This document shows positions 35,381 to 44,339 of a stretch of DNA of 44,339 bases, piece after piece (the stretch's first letter is position 1; each line of letters opens with the position of its first letter). Source of the stretch: a virus (taxonomy: Duplodnaviria > Heunggongvirae > Uroviricota > Caudoviricetes); IMG/VR virus record IMGVR_UViG_2923286960_000001. One strand, written 5' to 3'. Made by a program: the position numbers and the translations under genes. Under the pieces are notes generated by a model, which ran no database searches, was not told the DNA's origin, and saw nothing but the letters and a program-made list of their open reading frames with translations.

Positions 35381-38300
35381 ATGGGTAAAGGCAGCAGTAA
35401 GGGGCATACTCCGCGCGAAGCGAAGGACAACCTGAAGTCCACGCAGTTGCTGAGTGTGATCGATGCCATCAGCGAAGGGCCGATTGAAGGTCCGGTGGAT
35501 GGATTAAAAAGCGTGCTGCTGAACAGTACGCCAGTGCTGGACAGTGAGGGGAATACCAACATCTCCGGCGTCACGGTGGTGTTCCGGGCCGGTGAGCAGG
35601 AGCAGACACCGCCGGAGGGATTTGAATCCTCCGGCTCCGAGACGGTGCTGGGTACGGAAGTGAAATACGACACGCCGATCACCCGGACCATCACGTCGGC
35701 AAACATCGACCGTCTGCGCTTTACCTTCGGCGTGCAGGCACTGGTGGAAACCACCTCAAAGGGGGACAGGAATCCGTCGGAAGTCCGCCTGCTGGTTCAG
35801 ATACAGCGTAATGGTGGCTGGGTGACGGAAAAAGACATCACCATTAAGGGCAAAACCACCTCGCAGTATCTGGCCTCGGTGGTGGTGGGTAACCTGCCGC
35901 CGCGCCCGTTCAATATACGGATGCGCAGGATGACGCCGGACAGCACCACAGACCAGCTGCAGAACAAAACGCTCTGGTCGTCATACACCGAAATCATCGA
36001 TGTGAAACAGTGCTACCCGAACACGGCACTGGTCGGCGTGCAGGTGGACTCGGAGCAGTTCGGCAGCCAGCAGGTGAGCCGTAATTATCATCTGCGCGGG
36101 CGTATTCTGCAGGTGCCGTCGAACTATAACCCGCAGACGCGGCAATACAGCGGTATCTGGGACGGAACGTTTAAGCCAGCATACAGCAACAACATGGCCT
36201 GGTGTCTGTGGGATATGCTGACCCATCCGCGCTACGGCATGGGGAAACGTCTTGGTGCGGCGGATGTGGACAAATGGGCGCTGTATGTCATCGGCCACTA
36301 CTGCGACCAGTCGGTGCCGGACGGTTTTGGCGGCACGGAGCCGCGCATCACCTGTAATGCGTACCTGACCACACAGCGCAAGGCGTGGGATGTGCTCAGT
36401 GATTTCTGCTCGGCGATGCGCTGTATGCCGGTATGGAACGGGCAGACGCTGACGTTCGTGCAGGACCGACCGTCGGATAAGGTGTGGACCTATAACCGCA
36501 GTAATGTGGTGATGCCGGATGATGGTGCGCCGTTCCGCTACAGCTTCAGCGCCCTGAAGGACCGCCATAATGCCGTTGAGGTGAACTGGATTGACCCGAA
36601 TAACGGCTGGGAGACGGCGACAGAGCTTGTGGAGGACACGCAGGCCATTGCCCGTTACGGTCGTAGCGTCACGAAGATGGATGCTTTTGGCTGTACCAGC
36701 CGGGGGCAGGCACACCGCGCCGGGCTGTGGCTGATTAAAACTGAACTGCTGGAGACGCAGACCGTGGATTTCAGCGTGGGTGCTGAAGGGCTTCGCCATG
36801 TACCGGGCGATGTCATTGAAATCTGCGATGATGACTATGCCGGTATCAGCACCGGTGGTCGCGTGCTGGCGGTGAACAGCCAGACCCGGACGCTGACGCT
36901 CGACCGTGAAATCACGCTGCCATCCTCCGGTACCACGCTGATAAGCCTGGTTGACGGAAGTGGTAATCCGGTCAGCGTGGAGGTTCAGTCCGTCACCGAC
37001 GGACTTAAGGTGAAAGTGAACCGGGTTCCTGACGGCGTTGCAGAATACAGTGTGTGGGGGCTGAAGCTGCCGACGTTGCGTCAGCGCCTGTTCCGCTGTG
37101 TGAGTATCCGTGAGAACGATGACGGCACGTATGCCATCACTGCCGTGCAGCATGTACCGGAAAAAGAAGCCATCGTGGATAACGGGGCGCACTTTGACGG
37201 CGACCAGAGCGGCACGGTGAATGGTGTCACGCCGCCAGCGGTGCAGCACCTGACCGCCGAAGTCACCGCAGACAGCGGGGAATATCAGGTGCTGGCGCGC
37301 TGGGACACGCCGAAGGTGGTGAAGGGCGTGAGCTTCCTGCTCCGTCTGACCGTAACAGCGGATGACGGCAGTGAGCGGCTGGTCAGCACGGCCCGGACGA
37401 CGGAAACCACATACCGCTTCACGCAACTGGCGCTGGGGAACTACAGACTGACAGTCCGGGCGGTAAATGCGTGGGGGCAGCAGGGCGATCCGGCGTCGGT
37501 ATCGTTCCGGATTGCCGCACCGGCAGCACCGTCGAGGATTGAGCTGACGCCGGGCTATTTTCAGATAACCGCCACGCCGCATCTTGCGGTTTATGATCCG
37601 ACTGTACAGTTTGAGTTCTGGTTCTCGGAAAAGCGGATTGCGGATATCAGGCAGGTTGAAACCACAGCCCGCTATCTTGGCACGGCGCTGTACTGGATAG
37701 CCGCCAGTATCAATATCAAACCGGGCCATGATTATTATTTTTACGTTCGCAGTGTGAACACCGTCGGCAAATCGACATTCGTGGAGGCTGTCGGTCGGGC
37801 GAGCGATGATGCGGAAGGTTACCTGGATTTTTTCAAAGGCCAGATAACTGAATCCCATCTCGGCAAGGAGCTGCTGGAAAAAGTCGAGCTGACGGAGGAT
37901 AACGCCAGCAAACTGGAGGAGTTTTCGAAAGAGTGGAAGGACGCCAACGATAAATGGAATGCCATGTGGGGCGTCAAAATTGAGCAGACCAAAGACGGCA
38001 AACATTATGTCGCGGGTATTGGCCTCAGCATGGAGGACACGGAAGAAGGCAAGCTGAGCCAGTTTCTGGTTGCCGCTAACCGTATCGCGTTTATTGACCC
38101 GGCAAACGGGAATGAAACGCCGATGTTTGTGGCGCAGGGCAATCAGATATTTATGAACGACGTGTTCCTGAAGCGCCTGACGGCCCCGACCATTACCAGT
38201 GGTGGAAATCCACCGGCATTTTCCCTGACATCAGACGGAAAGCTGACCGCTAAAAATGCGGATATCAGTGGCAGAGTGAATGCGAACGCCGGGACGCTCA

Positions 38301-38794
38301 ACAATGTCACGGTAAATGAAAACTGTACGATTAAGGGCATGCTGGAGGCGACTCAGGTCAGAGGTGACTTCGTTAAAGCTGTATCCAAATCATTCCCGAA
38401 ACAGGCTGGTACGTGGGGTAACACGGAAACACCAAACGGGACGGTTACAGTCACCATCAGCGATGATCATAACTTTGACCGTCAAATCATTATTCCGCCC
38501 ATTATCTTTAACGGAATAGCGTATAGCGATCCGGGAAGTGGTAATAACCCGGGAGGTACAAGATACACGGGTGATGGTTTTGAAGTTCGCAAAAACGGTG
38601 TATTAATCGCATCCAGAGAAACTAAAGGGGCCATTCCCGGTAGCTACAGTGCGGTTATTGATATGCCGAGTGGCAGGGGAAGCGTCACTCTGGAGTTTAA
38701 GGTTTTCCATAAAGGCAATCAGTGGGCAGGTAATATCACCGACTGTACGGTGATTGTGACCAAAAAAGCCGCTTCCGGCATCAGTATTCGTTGA
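35381..38794 (+). CDS. J: central tail fibre / host specificity protein J
   Basis: 1137 aa, lambda gpJ-like from [20 protein letters not shown]; the C-terminal roughly 100 aa (receptor-binding part) look different from lambda J as recalled. Confidence 0.95.
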
Positions 38795-38863: not shown

Positions 38864-39463
38864 ATGCGTAAACTTTATGCCGCCATTTTGTCCGCAGCCA
38901 TTTGTCTGGCCGTATCCGGTGCGCCTGCATGGGCATCTGAACATCAGTTCACGCTGAGCGCGGGGTATCTTCATGCCCGGACCAACGTTCCCGGCAGTGA
39001 TGATCTGAACGGGATTAACGTGAAATACCGTTATGAGTTTACGGATACGCTGGGGCTGGTGACGTCATTCAGCTATGCAGGAGACAAGAATCGCCAGCTG
39101 ACCCGTTACAGCGATACCCGCTGGCATGAAGATTCCGTGCGTAACCGCTGGTTCAGCGTGATGGCGGGGCCGTCTGTGCGCGTGAATGAATGGTTCAGCG
39201 CGTATGCGATGGCGGGTATGGCTTACAGCCGTGTTTCGACTTTTTCCGGGGATTACCTTCGCGTAACTGACAACAAGGGGAAAACGCACGATGTGCTGAC
39301 CGGAAGTGATGACGGTCGCCACAGCAACACGTCTCTGGCGTGGGGGGCTGGCGTGCAGTTTAACCCGACCGAATCCGTGGCCATTGATATTGCTTATGAA
39401 GGCTCCGGCAGTGGTGACTGGCGCACTGACGGTTTCATCGTGGGTGTCGGTTATAAATTCTGA
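38864..39463 (+). CDS. lom: Lom/Ail-family outer-membrane beta-barrel protein
   Basis: 199 aa, signal peptide, C-terminal GVGYKF. Confidence 0.9.
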   Translation: MRKLYAAILSAAICLAVSGAPAWASEHQFTLSAGYLHARTNVPGSDDLNGINVKYRYEFTDTLGLVTSFSYAGDKNRQLTRYSDTRWHEDSVRNRWFSVMAGPSVRVNEWFSAYAMAGMAYSRVSTFSGDYLRVTDNKGKTHDVLTGSDDGRHSNTSLAWGAGVQFNPTESVAIDIAYEGSGSGDWRTDGFIVGVGYKF

Positions 39464-39527: not shown

Positions 39528-41924
39528 ATGGCAGTAAAGATTTCAGGTGTACTGAAAGACGGCACAGGAAAACCGGTACAGAACTGCTCAATCCAGCTGA
39601 AAGCAAAACGTAACAGCACCACGGTTGTGGTAAACACGGTGGCCTCAGAAAATCCGGATGAAGCCGGGCGTTACAGTATGGATGTTGAGTATGGCCAGTA
39701 CAGCGTTATCCTGCTGGTTGAAGGTTTTCCGCCTTCACATGCCGGGACCATCACCGTGTATGAAGATTCTAAGCCGGGGACGCTGAATGATTTTCTCGGT
39801 GCCATGACGGAAGATGATGTCATGCCGGAGGCATTGCGTCGTTTTGAGGAAATGGTGGAAGAAGCGGCACGCAACGCTGAAGCCGCCTCTCAGAGCGCAG
39901 CGGCGGCAAAGAAATCCGAAACTGCAGCGGCATCATCGAAGAACGCGGCGAAAACCTCAGAAACGAATGCAGCTAATAGTGCACAGGCGGCAGCGACCTC
40001 AAAGACTGCATCGGCAAACTCCGCGACAGCAGCCAAAAAATCAGAAACCAACGCGAAAAATAGCGAGACAGCCGCAAAGACGAGCGAAACCAACGCAAAG
40101 TCCAGCCAGACGGCAGCGAAAACCAGCGAAACGAATGCCAAAGCCAGTGAAACTGCGGCAAAAAACAGCCAGGTTGCAGCAGCCCAAAGCGAGAGCGCGG
40201 CAGCCGGTTCTGCGACTTCAGCAGCTGGATCAGCAACTGCTGCGGCTAACAGCCAGAAAGCTGCGAAGACGAGTGAAACTAACGCAAAGTCCAGCCAGAC
40301 GGCAGCGAAGACCAGCGAAACGAATGCCAAAGCCAGCGAAACTGCGGCGAAAAACAGTCAGGATGCAGCAGCCCAAAGCGAGAGTGCTGCAGCTGGTTCT
40401 GCAAGCGCGGCGGCTGCTTCTGCCACTGCATCAGCCAACAGTCAAAAAGCAGCAAAAACCAGTGAAACCAATGCAAAGACAAGCGAGACTGCAGCGGCGA
40501 ACTCGGCGAAAGCATCGGCAGCAAGCCAGACAGCAGCTAAAGCAAGTGAAGACGCAGCCAGAGAGTATGCAAGTCAGGCAGCAGAGCCGTATAAATATGT
40601 CTTACAGCCACTGCCTGATGTGTGGATACCGTTTAACGATTCACTGGATATGATTACGGGCTTTTCGCCGTCATATAAAAAAATTGTTATTGGTGATGAT
40701 GAAATAACGATGCCTGGCGACAAGGTTGTTAAGTTTAAACGCGCATCAACTGCCACATATATCAATAAATCAGGCGTATTTAGTGTTGCTAAAATTGATG
40801 AGCCACGATTTGAAAAAGAAGGTTTATTGATTGAAGGACAGCGCACTAACTATTTTGTTAAATCCAATACTCCCGCTGAATGGACGAGTACCAGCAATAT
40901 CGATAAAACTAATAATGGTGTTGATGAATTTGGTTTTTCATATGCCAAAATGCGAACAAAAGATAATATGACAGGACAATCATCTGCACTTAGTCTGCAT
41001 ACATGCAGTGCATCCCGGGGGATTGATGTTAGTGGCGATAATAAGTATTGCACTGTTTCATGCAGGGTTAAAGCTCCTGATGGTCTTCGTTGTCGTTTGC
41101 GTTTTGAAAAATACGATGGGTCGGTTTATACATTTTTAGGAGATGCTTATTTAACTTTCGGAACTCTGATAATAGAAAAAACTGGCGGGGCAGCCAATAG
41201 AATAGCAGCTACTGCAACTAAAGATCCGGTTACAGGGTGGATTTTCTATGAGGCAACTATAGAAGCTGTTGAAGGTGAAACCTTAATTGGCGCAATGATT
41301 CAGTATGCGCCGAAAAAAGGTGGTATAACTGAAGCGGGAGATTATATTTACCTTGCAACACCACAATTTGAAAACGGCGGATGTGCTTCATCTTTTGTTA
41401 TTACGACAACTGCACCCGCAACCCGCTCCAGTGATATGGTGACGATCCCAACTGAAAATAATATCTATAATAGACCGCTTACGTGTCTTGTCGAGGTTAA
41501 TAGAAATTGGGGCGATATTCCTCCTAATGTAGCACCGCGTATTTTTGATTTTTCTGGTGTGCCACCTATTGAGTCAATTACATACGCTTTTAACACAACT
41601 GAGAAATATTACGGTCAGCTTTATATGCAAACTTATAAAGCGTCGACAAGTACTTACGTTTCTAGTGTGTTTGCTGGTCGAACTGATGTTCGAAAATTCA
41701 TTGGTGGTTTTAATATTTATTCTGATGGTACTAAACGAGTAGTTTCTAACGGTGAGGCTACTAAAACTATGAAAACGGAGTGGACGGGCGTAAAAACACG
41801 GACCTTTATTCGAATTGGAGGTCAAGCCACATCGGGAACTCGTCATCTATTCGGCCATTTGAGAAATCTTCGTCTCTGGCATAAAGAATTAACTGATGCG
41901 CAAATGGGGGAGAGTATTAAATGA
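39528..41924 (+). CDS. stf: side tail fibre protein with internal tandem repeats and a divergent low-GC C-terminal domain
   Basis: N-terminal about 120 aa lambda Stf-like; central Ala/Ser/Thr-rich shaft with KTSETNAK repeats; C-terminal about 440 aa encoded by AT-rich DNA. Confidence 0.85.
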   Translation: MAVKISGVLKDGTGKPVQNCSIQLKAKRNSTTVVVNTVASENPDEAGRYSMDVEYGQYSVILLVEGFPPSHAGTITVYEDSKPGTLNDFLGAMTEDDVMPEALRRFEEMVEEAARNAEAASQSAAAAKKSETAAASSKNAAKTSETNAANSAQAAATSKTASANSATAAKKSETNAKNSETAAKTSETNAKSSQTAAKTSETNAKASETAAKNSQVAAAQSESAAAGSATSAAGSATAAANSQKAAKTSETNAKSSQTAAKTSETNAKASETAAKNSQDAAAQSESAAAGSASAAAASATASANSQKAAKTSETNAKTSETAAANSAKASAASQTAAKASEDAAREYASQAAEPYKYVLQPLPDVWIPFNDSLDMITGFSPSYKKIVIGDDEITMPGDKVVKFKRASTATYINKSGVFSVAKIDEPRFEKEGLLIEGQRTNYFVKSNTPAEWTSTSNIDKTNNGVDEFGFSYAKMRTKDNMTGQSSALSLHTCSASRGIDVSGDNKYCTVSCRVKAPDGLRCRLRFEKYDGSVYTFLGDAYLTFGTLIIEKTGGAANRIAATATKDPVTGWIFYEATIEAVEGETLIGAMIQYAPKKGGITEAGDYIYLATPQFENGGCASSFVITTTAPATRSSDMVTIPTENNIYNRPLTCLVEVNRNWGDIPPNVAPRIFDFSGVPPIESITYAFNTTEKYYGQLYMQTYKASTSTYVSSVFAGRTDVRKFIGGFNIYSDGTKRVVSNGEATKTMKTEWTGVKTRTFIRIGGQATSGTRHLFGHLRNLRLWHKELTDAQMGESIK
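40077..40454 (+). repeat. 2 x 189-bp in-frame tandem repeat within stf
   Basis: Unit at 40077 repeats at 40266 with few substitutions; nested 27-bp sub-repeats. Confidence 0.75.
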
Positions 41925-42202
41925 AAGATTTAACACTCAAATTTGCAGACAGGGCCGACTTTTCGGCCTTTATGGAGAGCATTGGCTATTATGATGACGA
42001 GTCGATGCAGGATGATATTCTTATTGACGTGATAGGTAATGTGTACAAAGAAACCGGAGAACTTACTGAAGATGGCGAGCCGGTATGTGTTAAGGAGGAC
42101 GGATATTTTGTAAATGTGCGCATCATTAATGATTCGCAAATATCGTCATTATTCGATGAACACGCGGTTGCTGTTGAGCATCAACTCCGTAGCTGGATGT
42201 GA
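41921..42202 (+). CDS. hypothetical acidic protein (93 aa) coupled to stf
   Basis: ATG overlaps the stf stop (ATGA); AT-rich. Confidence 0.5.
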   Translation: MKDLTLKFADRADFSAFMESIGYYDDESMQDDILIDVIGNVYKETGELTEDGEPVCVKEDGYFVNVRIINDSQISSLFDEHAVAVEHQLRSWM

Positions 42203-42211
42203 GGAAGAAAA

Positions 42212-42916
42212 ATGGCTACATCGACAGTAATTCCTGATGACATCAAAACGCTAAAGGGAGATGTCAGTAAGGCAAAGGAAGATATTTCCTCAATTAACGT
42301 AAAAGTATCAACGCTTCAGACTGATATGGACAGTGCAAAGCAGGATATCAGTACCAGATACACAAAAACAGAAGTGGATAATAAGCTGAAAAACAAAGTG
42401 GAAGTGAACGATCTGGAAAGTGGTCGTTATGGCGGAGATTTTTACCCGCTGACTGGCCGTGAAGCGTTTTATTTATGGGGATTGGGCACAACTACAGCGG
42501 CGGCAAATCTTTATCTTAATCCTGACCCTGCAATTTCGTCTGTGCTGCGGTCAACATCGTCTATCCGCTATAAACATTCAGTAGAGACGATAGATTCAGA
42601 GCACGCCGATCTCATTTTCAGGATGCGCCCTGTGTGGTACAGGTCGCAATGCGAAAATGACAGGCGTGACTGGGGATTCTATGGATTGATTGCCGAGGAA
42701 GTAGGAGAAATTGCCCCTCAGTTTGTTCACTGGCGACCAGCCAACGAAGATGATGCACCGGAAACCATTTCCAGCAATGGCCTTGTTGCCGAAGGTGTAA
42801 TGTACGAACGTCTGGTTGTTCCACTGATTCACCATATCCAGAAACTGACTGAAAGAGTTGATGAACTTGAGTCAGAATTGAAGTTGTTATCAACTTCCCA
42901 AAGCGATATCGGATAA
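42212..42916 (+). CDS. short protein with C-terminal tail-fibre intramolecular-chaperone (peptidase S74-like) domain
   Basis: GAGGAAG SD; C-terminal pattern SSIRYKHSVETID ... GLIAEEVGEIAPQFV ... YERLVVPLIHHIQKLTERVDELE resembles autocleaving chaperone domains of fibres/tailspikes. Confidence 0.65.
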   Translation: MATSTVIPDDIKTLKGDVSKAKEDISSINVKVSTLQTDMDSAKQDISTRYTKTEVDNKLKNKVEVNDLESGRYGGDFYPLTGREAFYLWGLGTTTAAANLYLNPDPAISSVLRSTSSIRYKHSVETIDSEHADLIFRMRPVWYRSQCENDRRDWGFYGLIAEEVGEIAPQFVHWRPANEDDAPETISSNGLVAEGVMYERLVVPLIHHIQKLTERVDELESELKLLSTSQSDIG

Positions 42917-42926
42917 AGGAGGAGTA

Positions 42927-43220
42927 ATGGATATAACACCTTTTCTTCATGCGCTTTGTGCTGTGGCTGCGCAGGTAATGATTGGTCTTTTTGCCGGAAA
43001 CTGGGTTTACGGGGCGATAGCCGGTTGTACGTTCTTCATTGCGCGTGAACACACCCAGGCAGAATATCGCTGGATTGAAATGTTCGGGCATGGCAAGCGG
43101 ATTAACATGCCGTGGTGGGGCGGTTTTGATCCGCGTGTTTGGGATGTGGCAAGCCTGATAGATTTTGCTGTGCCGGTGGTGGCGTGTCTGCTGGTCTGGC
43201 TGTTGGTTAATCGTGGGTGA
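42927..43220 (+). CDS. small two-TM membrane protein (97 aa)
   Basis: AGGAGG SD 6 nt upstream; two hydrophobic helices flank a Trp-rich loop. Confidence 0.55.
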   Translation: MDITPFLHALCAVAAQVMIGLFAGNWVYGAIAGCTFFIAREHTQAEYRWIEMFGHGKRINMPWWGGFDPRVWDVASLIDFAVPVVACLLVWLLVNRG

Positions 43221-43230
43221 AAAAAGGTGA

Positions 43231-43359
43231 GCTGTATATGCAACGGAGGAAGAAACCCCGTTGCTGGAAGCCTGGAAAAAGTATCGGGTGTTGCTGAACC
43301 GTGTTGATACATCAACTGCACCTGATATTGAGTGGCCTACGAACCCTGTCAGGGAGTAA
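43231..43359 (+). pseudogene. tail fibre assembly gene (tfa) 3' remnant
   Basis: In-frame [39 protein letters not shown] matches the lambda Tfa C-terminus; in-frame stop immediately upstream, no start. Confidence 0.7.
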
Positions 43360-43372
43360 TCATTGGGATTAT

Positions 43373-43422
43373 GCCGCAGCACGTCTTAAGCAAGAACGTG
43401 CTGCGGTTGGATGCTATTTTTT
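43373..43422 (+). terminator. hairpin terminator between the tfa remnant and the convergent methyltransferase
   Basis: GCCGCAGCACG-n13-CGTGCTGCGG followed by a T-run. Confidence 0.4.
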
Positions 43423-44082
43423 CCCTGAAGCGGAAAACATTACTACAGTACCTTGAACCTTGGTTTTAACATTCTCGAAATGCTCTGAGAGTATATGTGT
43501 TAAGCCTTCTTCGGAATCTTTTGTGTTTGAAAAGATGCCTTTCTGATTGTAAATGCGCATCAGTTTTTGACCGAAGCTATTGTGCACAACTCCATCGCCA
43601 AGAATTGTGGCTCCGTATAGAGTTCCATCGTCAGTTAAGGCCTGCGCCGCATTGCGTATTACACAGCTTTTTGTAGATATATTTCCAGGCAGGCAGTGAA
43701 GAAGGTAAAACATGGAAATGGAATCAAATTGACCATGTAACGCCGCGGGATAAGGTTCAAAAACATCATGGCTAATTTTATGTTTAATTTTTGATTCCCC
43801 AGCCCTTGTAGATGCCGCGTTCAGGCTAGCTTCGTTCAAATCCATTAAAGATATCAGACTACTCTCAGGTACGTGAGTAAGGTAAAACCCAGTTCCAACA
43901 CCAATATCCAGATGGTTGTTACCTAAATGTTCCAGAAAGTGTGGAAGAAGGTGTTCCTTTGTAGGACATCCCCATGCAAGCCGATTTGATACTCCCAAAA
44001 CCCACCAGTCATAAAGCTTTAGGGTAAGTGGTGTGTAAATTTTAGCCCCATCATCTGTGTTTTTTTTCATTAATTTCACCAT
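43414..44082 (-). CDS. class I SAM-dependent methyltransferase
   Basis: 222 aa with motif I LDIGVGTGFY and downstream acidic residue; low GC; opposite strand to the tail genes. Confidence 0.75.
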   Translation of the reverse strand: MVKLMKKNTDDGAKIYTPLTLKLYDWWVLGVSNRLAWGCPTKEHLLPHFLEHLGNNHLDIGVGTGFYLTHVPESSLISLMDLNEASLNAASTRAGESKIKHKISHDVFEPYPAALHGQFDSISMFYLLHCLPGNISTKSCVIRNAAQALTDDGTLYGATILGDGVVHNSFGQKLMRIYNQKGIFSNTKDSEEGLTHILSEHFENVKTKVQGTVVMFSASGKK

Positions 44083-44138: not shown

Positions 44139-44339
44139 ATGCTGCCGCAGCATAGCGATATTGAAATAGCCTGGTATGCTTCGATACAGCAGGAGCCGAA
44201 TGGCTGGAAGACCGTCACCACACAGTTCTACATCCAGGAATTCAGTGAGTATATTGCGCCACTGCAGGATGCTGGGAAATCGCAACGGAGGAAGAAAGAT
44301 CGTTGCTGGAGGCATGGAATAAATATCGGGTATTGTTGA
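44139..44339 (+). CDS. tfa-like gene, truncated by the window end and apparently frameshifted
   Basis: ...EYIAPLQDAGKS in one frame and EIATEEERSLLEAWNKYRVLL in the next correspond to lambda Tfa ...[30 protein letters not shown]...; about 8 nt missing around 44270. Confidence 0.45.
   Translation: MLPQHSDIEIAWYASIQQEPNGWKTVTTQFYIQEFSEYIAPLQDAGKSQRRKKDRCWRHGINIGYC

Follow-up and report, generated by a model that had tools for sequence, protein, structure and literature searches.

The gene orf234 (42212-42916, + strand, stop codon included) probably encodes, with a probability that we put at roughly 60%, the minimal allele of a second, distal or branch subunit ('fibre B') of a two-part side tail fibre. 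This arrangement has already been described in other coliphages, and the orf234 allele is most likely an uncharacterised member of it. The window, that is, the whole 44,339-nt stretch of DNA that was analysed, is a lambdoid prophage, an identical copy of which in strain B-2207 adjoins ompT and envY, at the DLP12 site.

Genetic context of orf234

The tail genes of the window include J (35381-38794, +) and lom (38864-39463, +), followed by stf, which encodes the 798-aa fibre A (39528-41924, +). The start of orf93 (41921-42202, +; phrog_1361), a small conserved partner gene, overlaps the stop of stf by 4 nt (ATGA), and a 9-nt spacer (42203-42211, +) with a Shine-Dalgarno-like GGAAGA, 4-9 nt 5' of the orf234 start codon, separates orf93 from orf234. 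The first-pass annotation had described orf234 as a separate short ORF with its own Shine-Dalgarno sequence, and a 234-aa ORF with an ATG start lies exactly there. An upstream in-frame extension, which would make orf234 a fragment of a larger pseudogene, was looked for and is absent, since the in-frame stop 9 nt upstream belongs to the conserved 93-aa gene. A read-through fusion of orf93 and orf234 was also considered, since the two ORFs share a reading frame and lie 9 or 12 nt apart in most lineages, yet it was set aside because a TAA ends the small ORF in most lineages and in two lineages the ORFs are out of frame. Downstream are orf97, for a small membrane protein (42927-43220, +; phrog_1443), a truncated tfa relic (43240-43359, +) and a ybcY-like methyltransferase gene (43414-44082, −). 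No + strand promoter or terminator was predicted from the start of stf (39528) to 43500, which fits the probable co-transcription of stf, orf93 and orf234.

In the Pfam search, Stf has the attachment domain PF08400 at its N-terminus and no S74 match, in line with the earlier observation that the upstream stf appears to lack this domain. After the attachment domain come a helical shaft rich in Ala and Ser and, at about aa 350-798, a distal domain, the ends of which are conserved and the middle hypervariable; NCBIfam NF048003 matches aa 434-634. This distal part is 44-45% identical to the LTF of KarlJaspers, the Stf of Lambda_2E9 and Gp22 of IrisVonRoten, and the N-terminal ~100-130 residues of fibre A are not alignable among the window, KarlJaspers and IrisVonRoten.

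In 179 phage records, a homologue of orf93 lies directly 3' of a fibre gene; six groups of phages are represented, namely lambdoid phages (including phage 21), Drexlerviridae, Dhillonvirus, Nonagvirus, T5-like and rV5-like phages. The orf93 protein is 54% identical to its KarlJaspers homologue, 39% to IrisVonRoten Gp23 and 33% to that of PhiR55_1, and its structure model has a pLDDT of 59, obtained from a shallow alignment (82-99% identity). It is considered here as a possible chaperone of the distal domain of fibre A, or an adaptor for it. No NCBIfam match was found for orf234, orf93 or orf97, and neither orf234 nor orf93 matched the Tfa-type chaperones (lambda Tfa, Mu U, P2 G) in Pfam, PHROG or NCBIfam.

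Domain organization and predicted maturation of orf234

The Peptidase_S74 family of Pfam (PF13884) matches orf234 at aa 116-172 (E = 4.6e-6, 27.3 bits against a gathering score of 22). In the library searched, 3465 proteins match this profile at E <= 1e-3, and among the best matches listed the domain is the C-terminus of longer fibre proteins. The AlphaFold2 model of orf234, built from 34 homologues, has a pLDDT of 75-94 over aa 120-230, with a helix at 198-232, and in Foldseek its best PDB match is the MyRF ICA domain (7dc3, E = 1.8e-5, probability 1.00), with matches also to the intramolecular chaperone (IMC) domains of GA-1 (3gud, probability 0.96) and of endosialidase (3gw6, probability 0.75). 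A profile of the orf234 family compared with PDB sequences gave a single match, the C-terminus of DT57C LtfA (8hqz_d). The S74-like C-terminal domain proposed in the first-pass annotation is thus confirmed by the profile match above threshold, by the IMC fold and by the invariant residues of its predicted catalytic site.

The IMC domain extends over 42557-42913 (+; aa 116-234) and ends in a long C-terminal helix. It starts with the motif SSIRYK (42557-42574, +; aa 116-121), which the first-pass annotation had also recognised and which is the predicted autocleavage site; both S116 (42557-42559) and K121 (42572-42574) are invariant in a 34-sequence alignment. The spacing of the two residues (S-x4-K) equals that of the catalytic Ser/Lys dyad of the IMC family, which is S578/K583 in MYRF and is also found in endosialidases (PMC3742443). 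From this correspondence, S116, the first Ser of the motif, is the likely nucleophile, and orf234 is predicted to cleave itself at Ser116/Lys121, into parts with computed masses of 12.6 kDa (aa 1-115) and 13.8 kDa (aa 116-234).

The part preceding the IMC begins with the N-terminal anchor MATSTVIPDDIKTLK (42212-42256, +; aa 1-15), a motif common to the alternative genes found at this position in other phages. It is followed, with some overlap, by a predicted trimeric coiled-coil stalk (42233-42358, +; aa 8-49) of six heptads with hydrophobic a positions (I11, V18, I25, V32, M39 and I46), which corresponds to the helix at aa 9-47 of the AlphaFold2 model. The alignment shows that heptad number differs among homologues, with indels of 7, 14 and about 34 aa, and such variation is typical of a stalk. 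The coiled coil had been estimated at about 120 aa, which is too long, as it is limited to these six heptads and residues about 60-115 are non-helical. The pre-IMC segment GDFYPLTG...TTTAAANLYLNP...VLRSTS (42407-42556, +; aa 66-115), in which N99 is invariant in the 34 sequences, is conserved with the last pre-IMC segment of the long Stf proteins P0066, P0067 and P0072. The monomer AlphaFold2 model has a pLDDT < 50 across this segment and is uninformative at aa 58-111; from its conservation, the segment is probably a short triple-beta structure that is left as the tip of the mature protein. Pfam and NCBIfam recognised no receptor-binding domain between the anchor and the IMC, and between the anchor and the cleavage site there are merely the six heptads and about 50 residues, with a sequence that is conserved and not variable.

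A three-gene cassette with an interchangeable fibre gene

The order fibre A, ~92-aa protein, fibre B is found in lambdoid, T1-like, T5-like, Dhillonvirus and Nonagvirus phages, and an order of the stf-orf93-orf234 type is kept across 12 phage lineages. In the virulent T1-like phage KarlJaspers, three neighbouring genes correspond to the Stf distal part, orf93 and orf234, with 44%, 54% and 59% identity, respectively, and this order is also present in PeterMerian, in a 60.8-kb Nonagvirus-like contig and in a Drexler-like contig. The gene in the third position, here called the slot, starts 9-12 nt after the small ORF (2 nt in KarlJaspers), and its product differs in length among phages: 234 aa in the window, 345 aa in lambdoid 2G7b, 348 aa in Nonagvirus JenP2 and 573-574 aa in T5_ev219 and IrisVonRoten, all with an S-x4-K IMC, and 98 aa in Dhillonvirus KarlBarth, which has none. 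The slot proteins of KarlJaspers (225 aa) and PeterMerian (231 aa) have the same N-terminal motif. All of the slot proteins (98, 221-234, 345, 348 and 573 aa) start with M[AV]TxTxIPxDIxxLK, and nearly all of the alleles have the S-x4-K IMC at the C-terminus. In the 345-, 348- and 573-aa alleles, the same anchor as in orf234 carries real receptor-binding domains; the 573-aa protein of T5_ev219 is 85% identical to IrisVonRoten Gp24.

The DNA of the window aligns with 2G7b at 89.6% identity over 41806-42255, a stretch that takes in the end of stf, orf93 and the first 15 codons of orf234; the rest of orf234 is unalignable, and the identity is 98.7% again from 42926, 10 nt past the stop codon. The alignment indicates that there is a recombination joint directly after codon 15 of orf234. 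With phage 21, Lambda_2E9 and ev243, the right-hand homology begins at 42915-42916, at the orf234 stop. These three phages have stf, orf92 and orf97 in order and an empty slot, and in their Stf the distal domain belongs to the type seen in the window (45% identical), so this type of Stf tip can exist without an S74 gene, and a working fibre A can dispense with fibre B.

The fibre B anchor always accompanies the fibre A distal part and orf93. Since the anchor is conserved while the fibre A N-termini and the tails are unrelated, its partner is expected inside the cassette, and we infer that the anchor docks on the fibre A distal part, on orf93 or on both. A scan of IMG/VR with a degenerate pattern for the anchor motif gave at least 120 loci. 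Among the matches listed, an orf93-family ORF of 89-93 aa ends 9-12 nt upstream of the anchor in 119 of 120 loci, and the 108 complete ORFs comprise a class of 227-234 aa (n = 57), with the predicted cleavage Ser at 116 or 109, and a class of 345-363 aa (n = 43), with this Ser at 227. Also among the matches listed are one 330-aa type that lacks the IMC and, in prophages, a few shortened copies of both allele classes.

Comparison with known fibre systems

The same three-gene order and spacing are present in the Tequintavirus IrisVonRoten (Bas32; bas32_0022, 0023 and 0024), in which Gp23 has 92 aa. In that phage, Humolli et al. 2025 (PMC11990801) modelled Gp22 and Gp24 as one complex with AlphaFold-Multimer, with Gp22 as the proximal fibre, its galectin-like domain protruding at the C-terminus, and Gp24 as a T-shaped distal receptor-binding fibre with an IMC, attached to Gp22. 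Stf and Gp22 align over 749 columns with 45% identity, the whole distal domain included, and orf234 has in common with Gp24 the anchor (MxTxTVIPxDIxxLK, with 11 of 28 residues identical in the aligned N-terminus) and the IMC (27% identity). Unlike orf234, however, the 574-aa Gp24 has tail-collar/Gp12-like and T5-like receptor-binding domains between the anchor and the IMC, and the attachment of fibre A also differs, through a lambdoid PF08400 N-terminus in the window and through a T5 Ltf N-terminus in IrisVonRoten. The second short fibre that was among the options of the first-pass annotation is therefore the one supported here, on account of the IrisVonRoten-homologous cassette and of a slot of interchangeable distal-fibre genes that have the first ~15 residues in common.

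A second fibre protein carried on a first one, as proposed here, is also known from the branched L-shaped fibres of DT57C and DT571/2, this likeness being one of description. In DT57C, LtfB requires LtfA, to which it is attached by a short segment conserved at its N-terminus (Golomidova et al. 2016, PMC4728585; Ayala et al. 2023, PMC10713586). Both LtfA and LtfB carry the autocleavable PF13884 domain, so that LtfA ends in an IMC whereas Stf in the window has none, and LtfB is a proven O-antigen-binding protein, unlike orf234. In the portions of the DT57C reports that are accessible, no gene of ~92 aa is mentioned between ltfA and ltfB, unlike the position of orf93 here.

Regarding the IMC, orf234 has the fold, the dyad spacing and the C-terminal helix of endosialidase K1F, T5 pb1, GA-1 gp12 and the MYRF ICA, and may also resemble them in having a short beta segment before the cleavage site. 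The IMCs of those four are at the end of large catalytic or receptor-binding proteins, whereas the cargo of orf234 has about 115 residues. To our knowledge, this is about the smallest natural cargo of an IMC domain, which would make orf234 a convenient model for IMC-driven trimerisation.

The Drexlerviridae orthologues (KarlJaspers bas06_0035, PeterMerian bas05_0029, Jahat_MG145 and JK16) have the same anchor, heptads, pre-IMC segment and dyad as orf234 and the same position after the LTF and a 92-aa gene. The tail of their C-terminal helix differs, and that of orf234 matches E. coli Stf proteins with a cis IMC. These orthologues are annotated as 'putative lateral tail fiber chaperone' (BASEL) or 'chaperone of endosialidase', which are guesses, and the BASEL papers do not discuss the gene beyond this annotation. 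Literature searches found nothing relevant on virion proteomics of the T1-like 'chaperone of endosialidase' gene or on trans action of IMC domains.

Proposed role of orf234

Here it is proposed that the C-terminal IMC of orf234 would nucleate trimerisation and the folding of the pre-IMC beta segment, and would zip the six-heptad coiled coil. Once the trimer had formed, the Ser116/Lys121 dyad would cleave on the N-terminal side of Ser116 and set free the 13.8-kDa IMC trimer, while the 12.6-kDa mature trimer would stay on the virion, held by its anchor on a conserved part of the Stf distal end, on orf93 or on both. The mature protein is reduced to a stalk and a small tip, so the hypervariable distal domain of Stf is probably the main determinant of the prophage's host range. 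The 115-residue stub itself may be a small tip for a conserved receptor or a structural cap, and is less likely to be an assembly starter. Three observations go against a fibre B role: the 115-aa mature part contains no receptor-binding domain that could be recognised, and it is conserved and not diversifying, which is unusual for a distal fibre subunit; the BASEL label of the homologues refers to a chaperone; and phages with fibre A and orf93 but no fibre B exist.

Co-variation with the Stf tip and chaperone-type alternatives

An alternative is that orf234 is a trans-acting assembly factor and not a virion protein. Its IMC trimer would dock transiently by the anchor on nascent Stf or on Stf-orf93, bring three Stf C-termini into register, and then cleave itself and depart. 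Such a factor would suit an Stf without a cis IMC and without an intact Tfa-type chaperone gene nearby, and also a mature orf234 that lacks a recognisable receptor-binding domain, shows conservation as in a housekeeping factor, is labelled a lateral tail fibre chaperone in the BASEL homologues and, among the matches listed, is always linked to fibre A and orf93. We consider it unlikely, however, as phage 21, ev243 and Lambda_2E9 have the same type of fibre A distal domain and orf92 with no orf234, and orf93, translationally coupled to stf and found in 179 phage records, is the better chaperone candidate. In addition, slot alleles with the same anchor are bona fide fibres with large domains (PMC11990801), and the IMC family has been described as acting on the N-terminal sequence of the same chain (PMC3742443).

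The pairing of orf234 with different fibres also argues against this function. Co-variation was analysed in 93 IMG/VR loci among the matches listed, 80 of them distinct after identical sets were removed. Clustering at 85% identity divides the C-terminal 320 aa of fibre A in the 93 loci into at least 14 tip clusters, seven of which are paired with both short and medium fibre B alleles. For the short-allele loci among the matches listed, the median pairwise identity is 39% for the fibre A tip (last 320 aa), 89% for orf93 and 95% for fibre B, and the rank correlations with the fibre A tip are weak (0.29-0.35); the correlations of orf93 and fibre B with the Stf distal domain among the matches listed are likewise not strong (Spearman 0.27-0.48). 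In all, orf234 is combined with at least 13 different Stf tip clusters, and the orf93 variant next to it can be just 33% identical, as in PhiR55_1, whose fibre B is itself 91% identical. This analysis speaks against tip specificity, and it does not separate the roles of orf93 and fibre B. A trans chaperone for the new Stf tip, which the first-pass annotation had put forward, is therefore disfavoured: the tip type and the 93-aa ORF occur without orf234, and orf234 is conserved at ~95% against tips that are ~39% identical.

Distinctly unlikely, too, is that orf234 acts as an intermolecular, self-cleaving trimeric 'starter' or cap, which would dock by its 15-residue anchor on the Stf/orf93 complex, set the trimer register of an Stf that has neither a cis IMC nor a Tfa, and afterwards leave or perhaps stay as a non-binding plug. 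If it were true, orf234 would represent a third class of fibre assembly factor, beside the Tfa-type chaperones and the cis IMCs.

Selection, spread and origin of orf234

Compared with the alleles of IdasGreatGrand (93% aa identity) and PhiR55_1 (91%), orf234 has a dN/dS of 0.19-0.23. In the mature part, the values are 0.23-0.27 for the pairs with the window and 0.31 for IdasGreatGrand against PhiR55_1, and in the IMC part they are 0.09-0.23. These values indicate purifying selection and point to a live gene, and the remnant is disfavoured. Among 5426 complete E. coli genomes, 719 carry at least 80% of the 1.5-kb region 41900-43400, and PGAP labels the orf234 protein as 'tail fiber domain-containing protein'. 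Phage PhiR49_1, which can be induced from ECOR, has a locus 99.3% identical to this one. Homologues of orf234 were found in 62 phage records. Full-length homologues of 221-231 aa, 55-60% identical, are present in about 45 virulent T1-like phages (Drexlerviridae), which keep the start, the heptads, the pre-IMC segment and the dyad of orf234, with the synonymous sites saturated, and a 268-aa homologue is encoded on the 60.8-kb contig, whose downstream gene sizes resemble those of Nonagvirus JenP2.

These data bear on the fibre remnant, the third option of the first-pass annotation. Under this explanation, orf234 would be a degenerate allele, left from a longer fibre B or from an older stf 3' end with a cis IMC after loss of the receptor-binding part, and the stub would be kept by linkage with no contribution to infection. 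In its favour, long E. coli Stf proteins with PF08400 at the N-terminus and an IMC in cis end in ~185 residues that are homologous to residues 49-234 of orf234 (55-61% identity), and the last ~30 residues of orf234 differ little from those of a 958-aa Stf. The locus also has a mosaic structure, tfa relics lie downstream of it, and shortened copies of both allele classes are present in prophages among the matches listed. Nevertheless, degeneration is quite improbable given a dN/dS of about 0.2 in both halves, the conservation of the start, anchor, dyad and length as the 234-aa form in at least 44 of 120 loci among the matches listed, the frequency of the region in E. coli, and the persistence of the short architecture in virulent phages with compact genomes and in the Nonagvirus-like contig. 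Very improbable is a short fibre or whisker that works on its own, as an adhesin or a sensor of the environment, and is attached elsewhere on the tail, such as at its tip or collar, and not on Stf or orf93, for which speak the overall build of the model, which resembles a trimeric coiled-coil whisker, and the fact that attachment to Stf is itself something that we infer, but against which stand the conservation of the anchor in five phage groups with differing tail proteins and fibre A N-termini and the orf93-family neighbour directly upstream in 119 of 120 loci among the matches listed, both of which place the common anchor partner inside the cassette.

Implications for annotation and fibre engineering

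Genes of the orf234 type are present in dozens of T1-like phages that are therapeutic candidates, with inconsistent labels (hypothetical, tail fibre or chaperone), and placing orf234 as the minimal allele of fibre B would give a testable annotation rule for such loci. In this prophage, the likely determinant of host range to be considered would be the Stf distal domain and not orf234. The 15-residue anchor and the two clean recombination joints, at 42256 and 42916, could serve for grafting receptor-binding domains onto the side fibres of lambdoid, T1-like and T5-like phages.

Right flank of the cassette

The orf97 region is 94-99% identical at the nucleotide level to phage 21, Lambda_2E9, 2G7b and ev243, with homology from the orf234 stop, and the orf97 homologue of phage 21 is annotated with two TMDs. 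We regard orf97 as a conserved gene that borders the cassette on the right and is probably no part of the fibre. The truncated relic at 43240-43359 is the sole tfa sequence near the stf cassette, and its presence downstream of orf234 shows that an older stf-tfa end was overwritten. Because the last ~30 residues of orf234 are shared almost unchanged with a long Stf, the 3' end of the IMC looks like a shared recombination joint beside orf97.

Variable and conserved parts of the fibre cassette

The middle of the distal domain of Stf (aa ~440-760, about 40850-41800 in the window) is hypervariable across otherwise near-identical prophages. Among the IMG/VR loci in the matches listed, this region forms at least 14 clusters with a median identity of 39%; its flanks, the small downstream gene product orf93 and the S74-ended fibre B (orf234) are conserved. 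The NCBIfam profile NF048003, for a GTA head spike fibre domain, matches Stf aa 434-634. The hypervariable distal domain of Stf, rather than orf234, looks like the host-range determinant. The Ala/Ser-rich shaft of Stf contains an internal duplication (40059-40307 and 40248-40496, offset by about 189 nt); when it is aligned with related loci, the match to their shifted copy is 83% identical. Shaft length probably varies through gain and loss of repeats.

The orf93 gene (41921-42202, + strand) is widespread, being present in 179 phage records from six phage groups, and carries no family annotation. Its start is always at or overlapping the stop codon of a fibre gene bearing a Stf-type distal domain, and phage 21, ev243, Lambda_2E9 and rV5-like phages carry it with no fibre B at all. 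Its product is a strong candidate for a fibre chaperone or adaptor that has not been described before; its AF2 model is of too poor quality for classification. The stop of orf93 and the start of orf234 (both within 42200-42214) share one reading frame, with 9 nt between them. Of the 120 IMG/VR loci among the matches listed, 119 have a gap of 9 or 12 nt between the small ORF and fibre B, and so do 10 of the 12 phage lineages checked; the compared loci include L005, L006, L009 and L012-L017. A read-through fusion of orf93 and orf234 seems unlikely, because the stop codon at the junction is TAA in most lineages and two lineages are out of frame.

Right end of the prophage and lom

Next to fibre B is orf97 (42927-43220, + strand; phrog_1443), a small membrane protein with two TMDs according to the phage 21 annotation. 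It has 94-99% nucleotide identity to the copies in phage 21, Lambda_2E9, 2G7b and ev243, and the adjoining upstream fibre cassette has diverged among phages sharing near-identical orf97. The left edge of the right-hand homology, which includes orf97, is exactly the orf234 stop. This conserved gene may serve lysogenic conversion or exclusion, and may also be the fixed right-hand joint for cassette exchange.

Farther right, a truncated tfa missing its N-terminus (43240-43359, + strand), a ybcY-like SAM methyltransferase gene (43414-44082, - strand) and a DinI fragment (about 44157-44237, - strand) are what is left of an older stf-tfa end of the lambda type. The 75 nt at 43240-43314 have a second copy farther downstream in related loci. 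The prophage is located at the DLP12 site, beside ompT and envY. The window has an intact lom of 199 aa (38864-39463), whereas in PhiR49_1, an induced phage with 99.3% identity, the annotation splits lom into two CDS (L002, 2455-3068).
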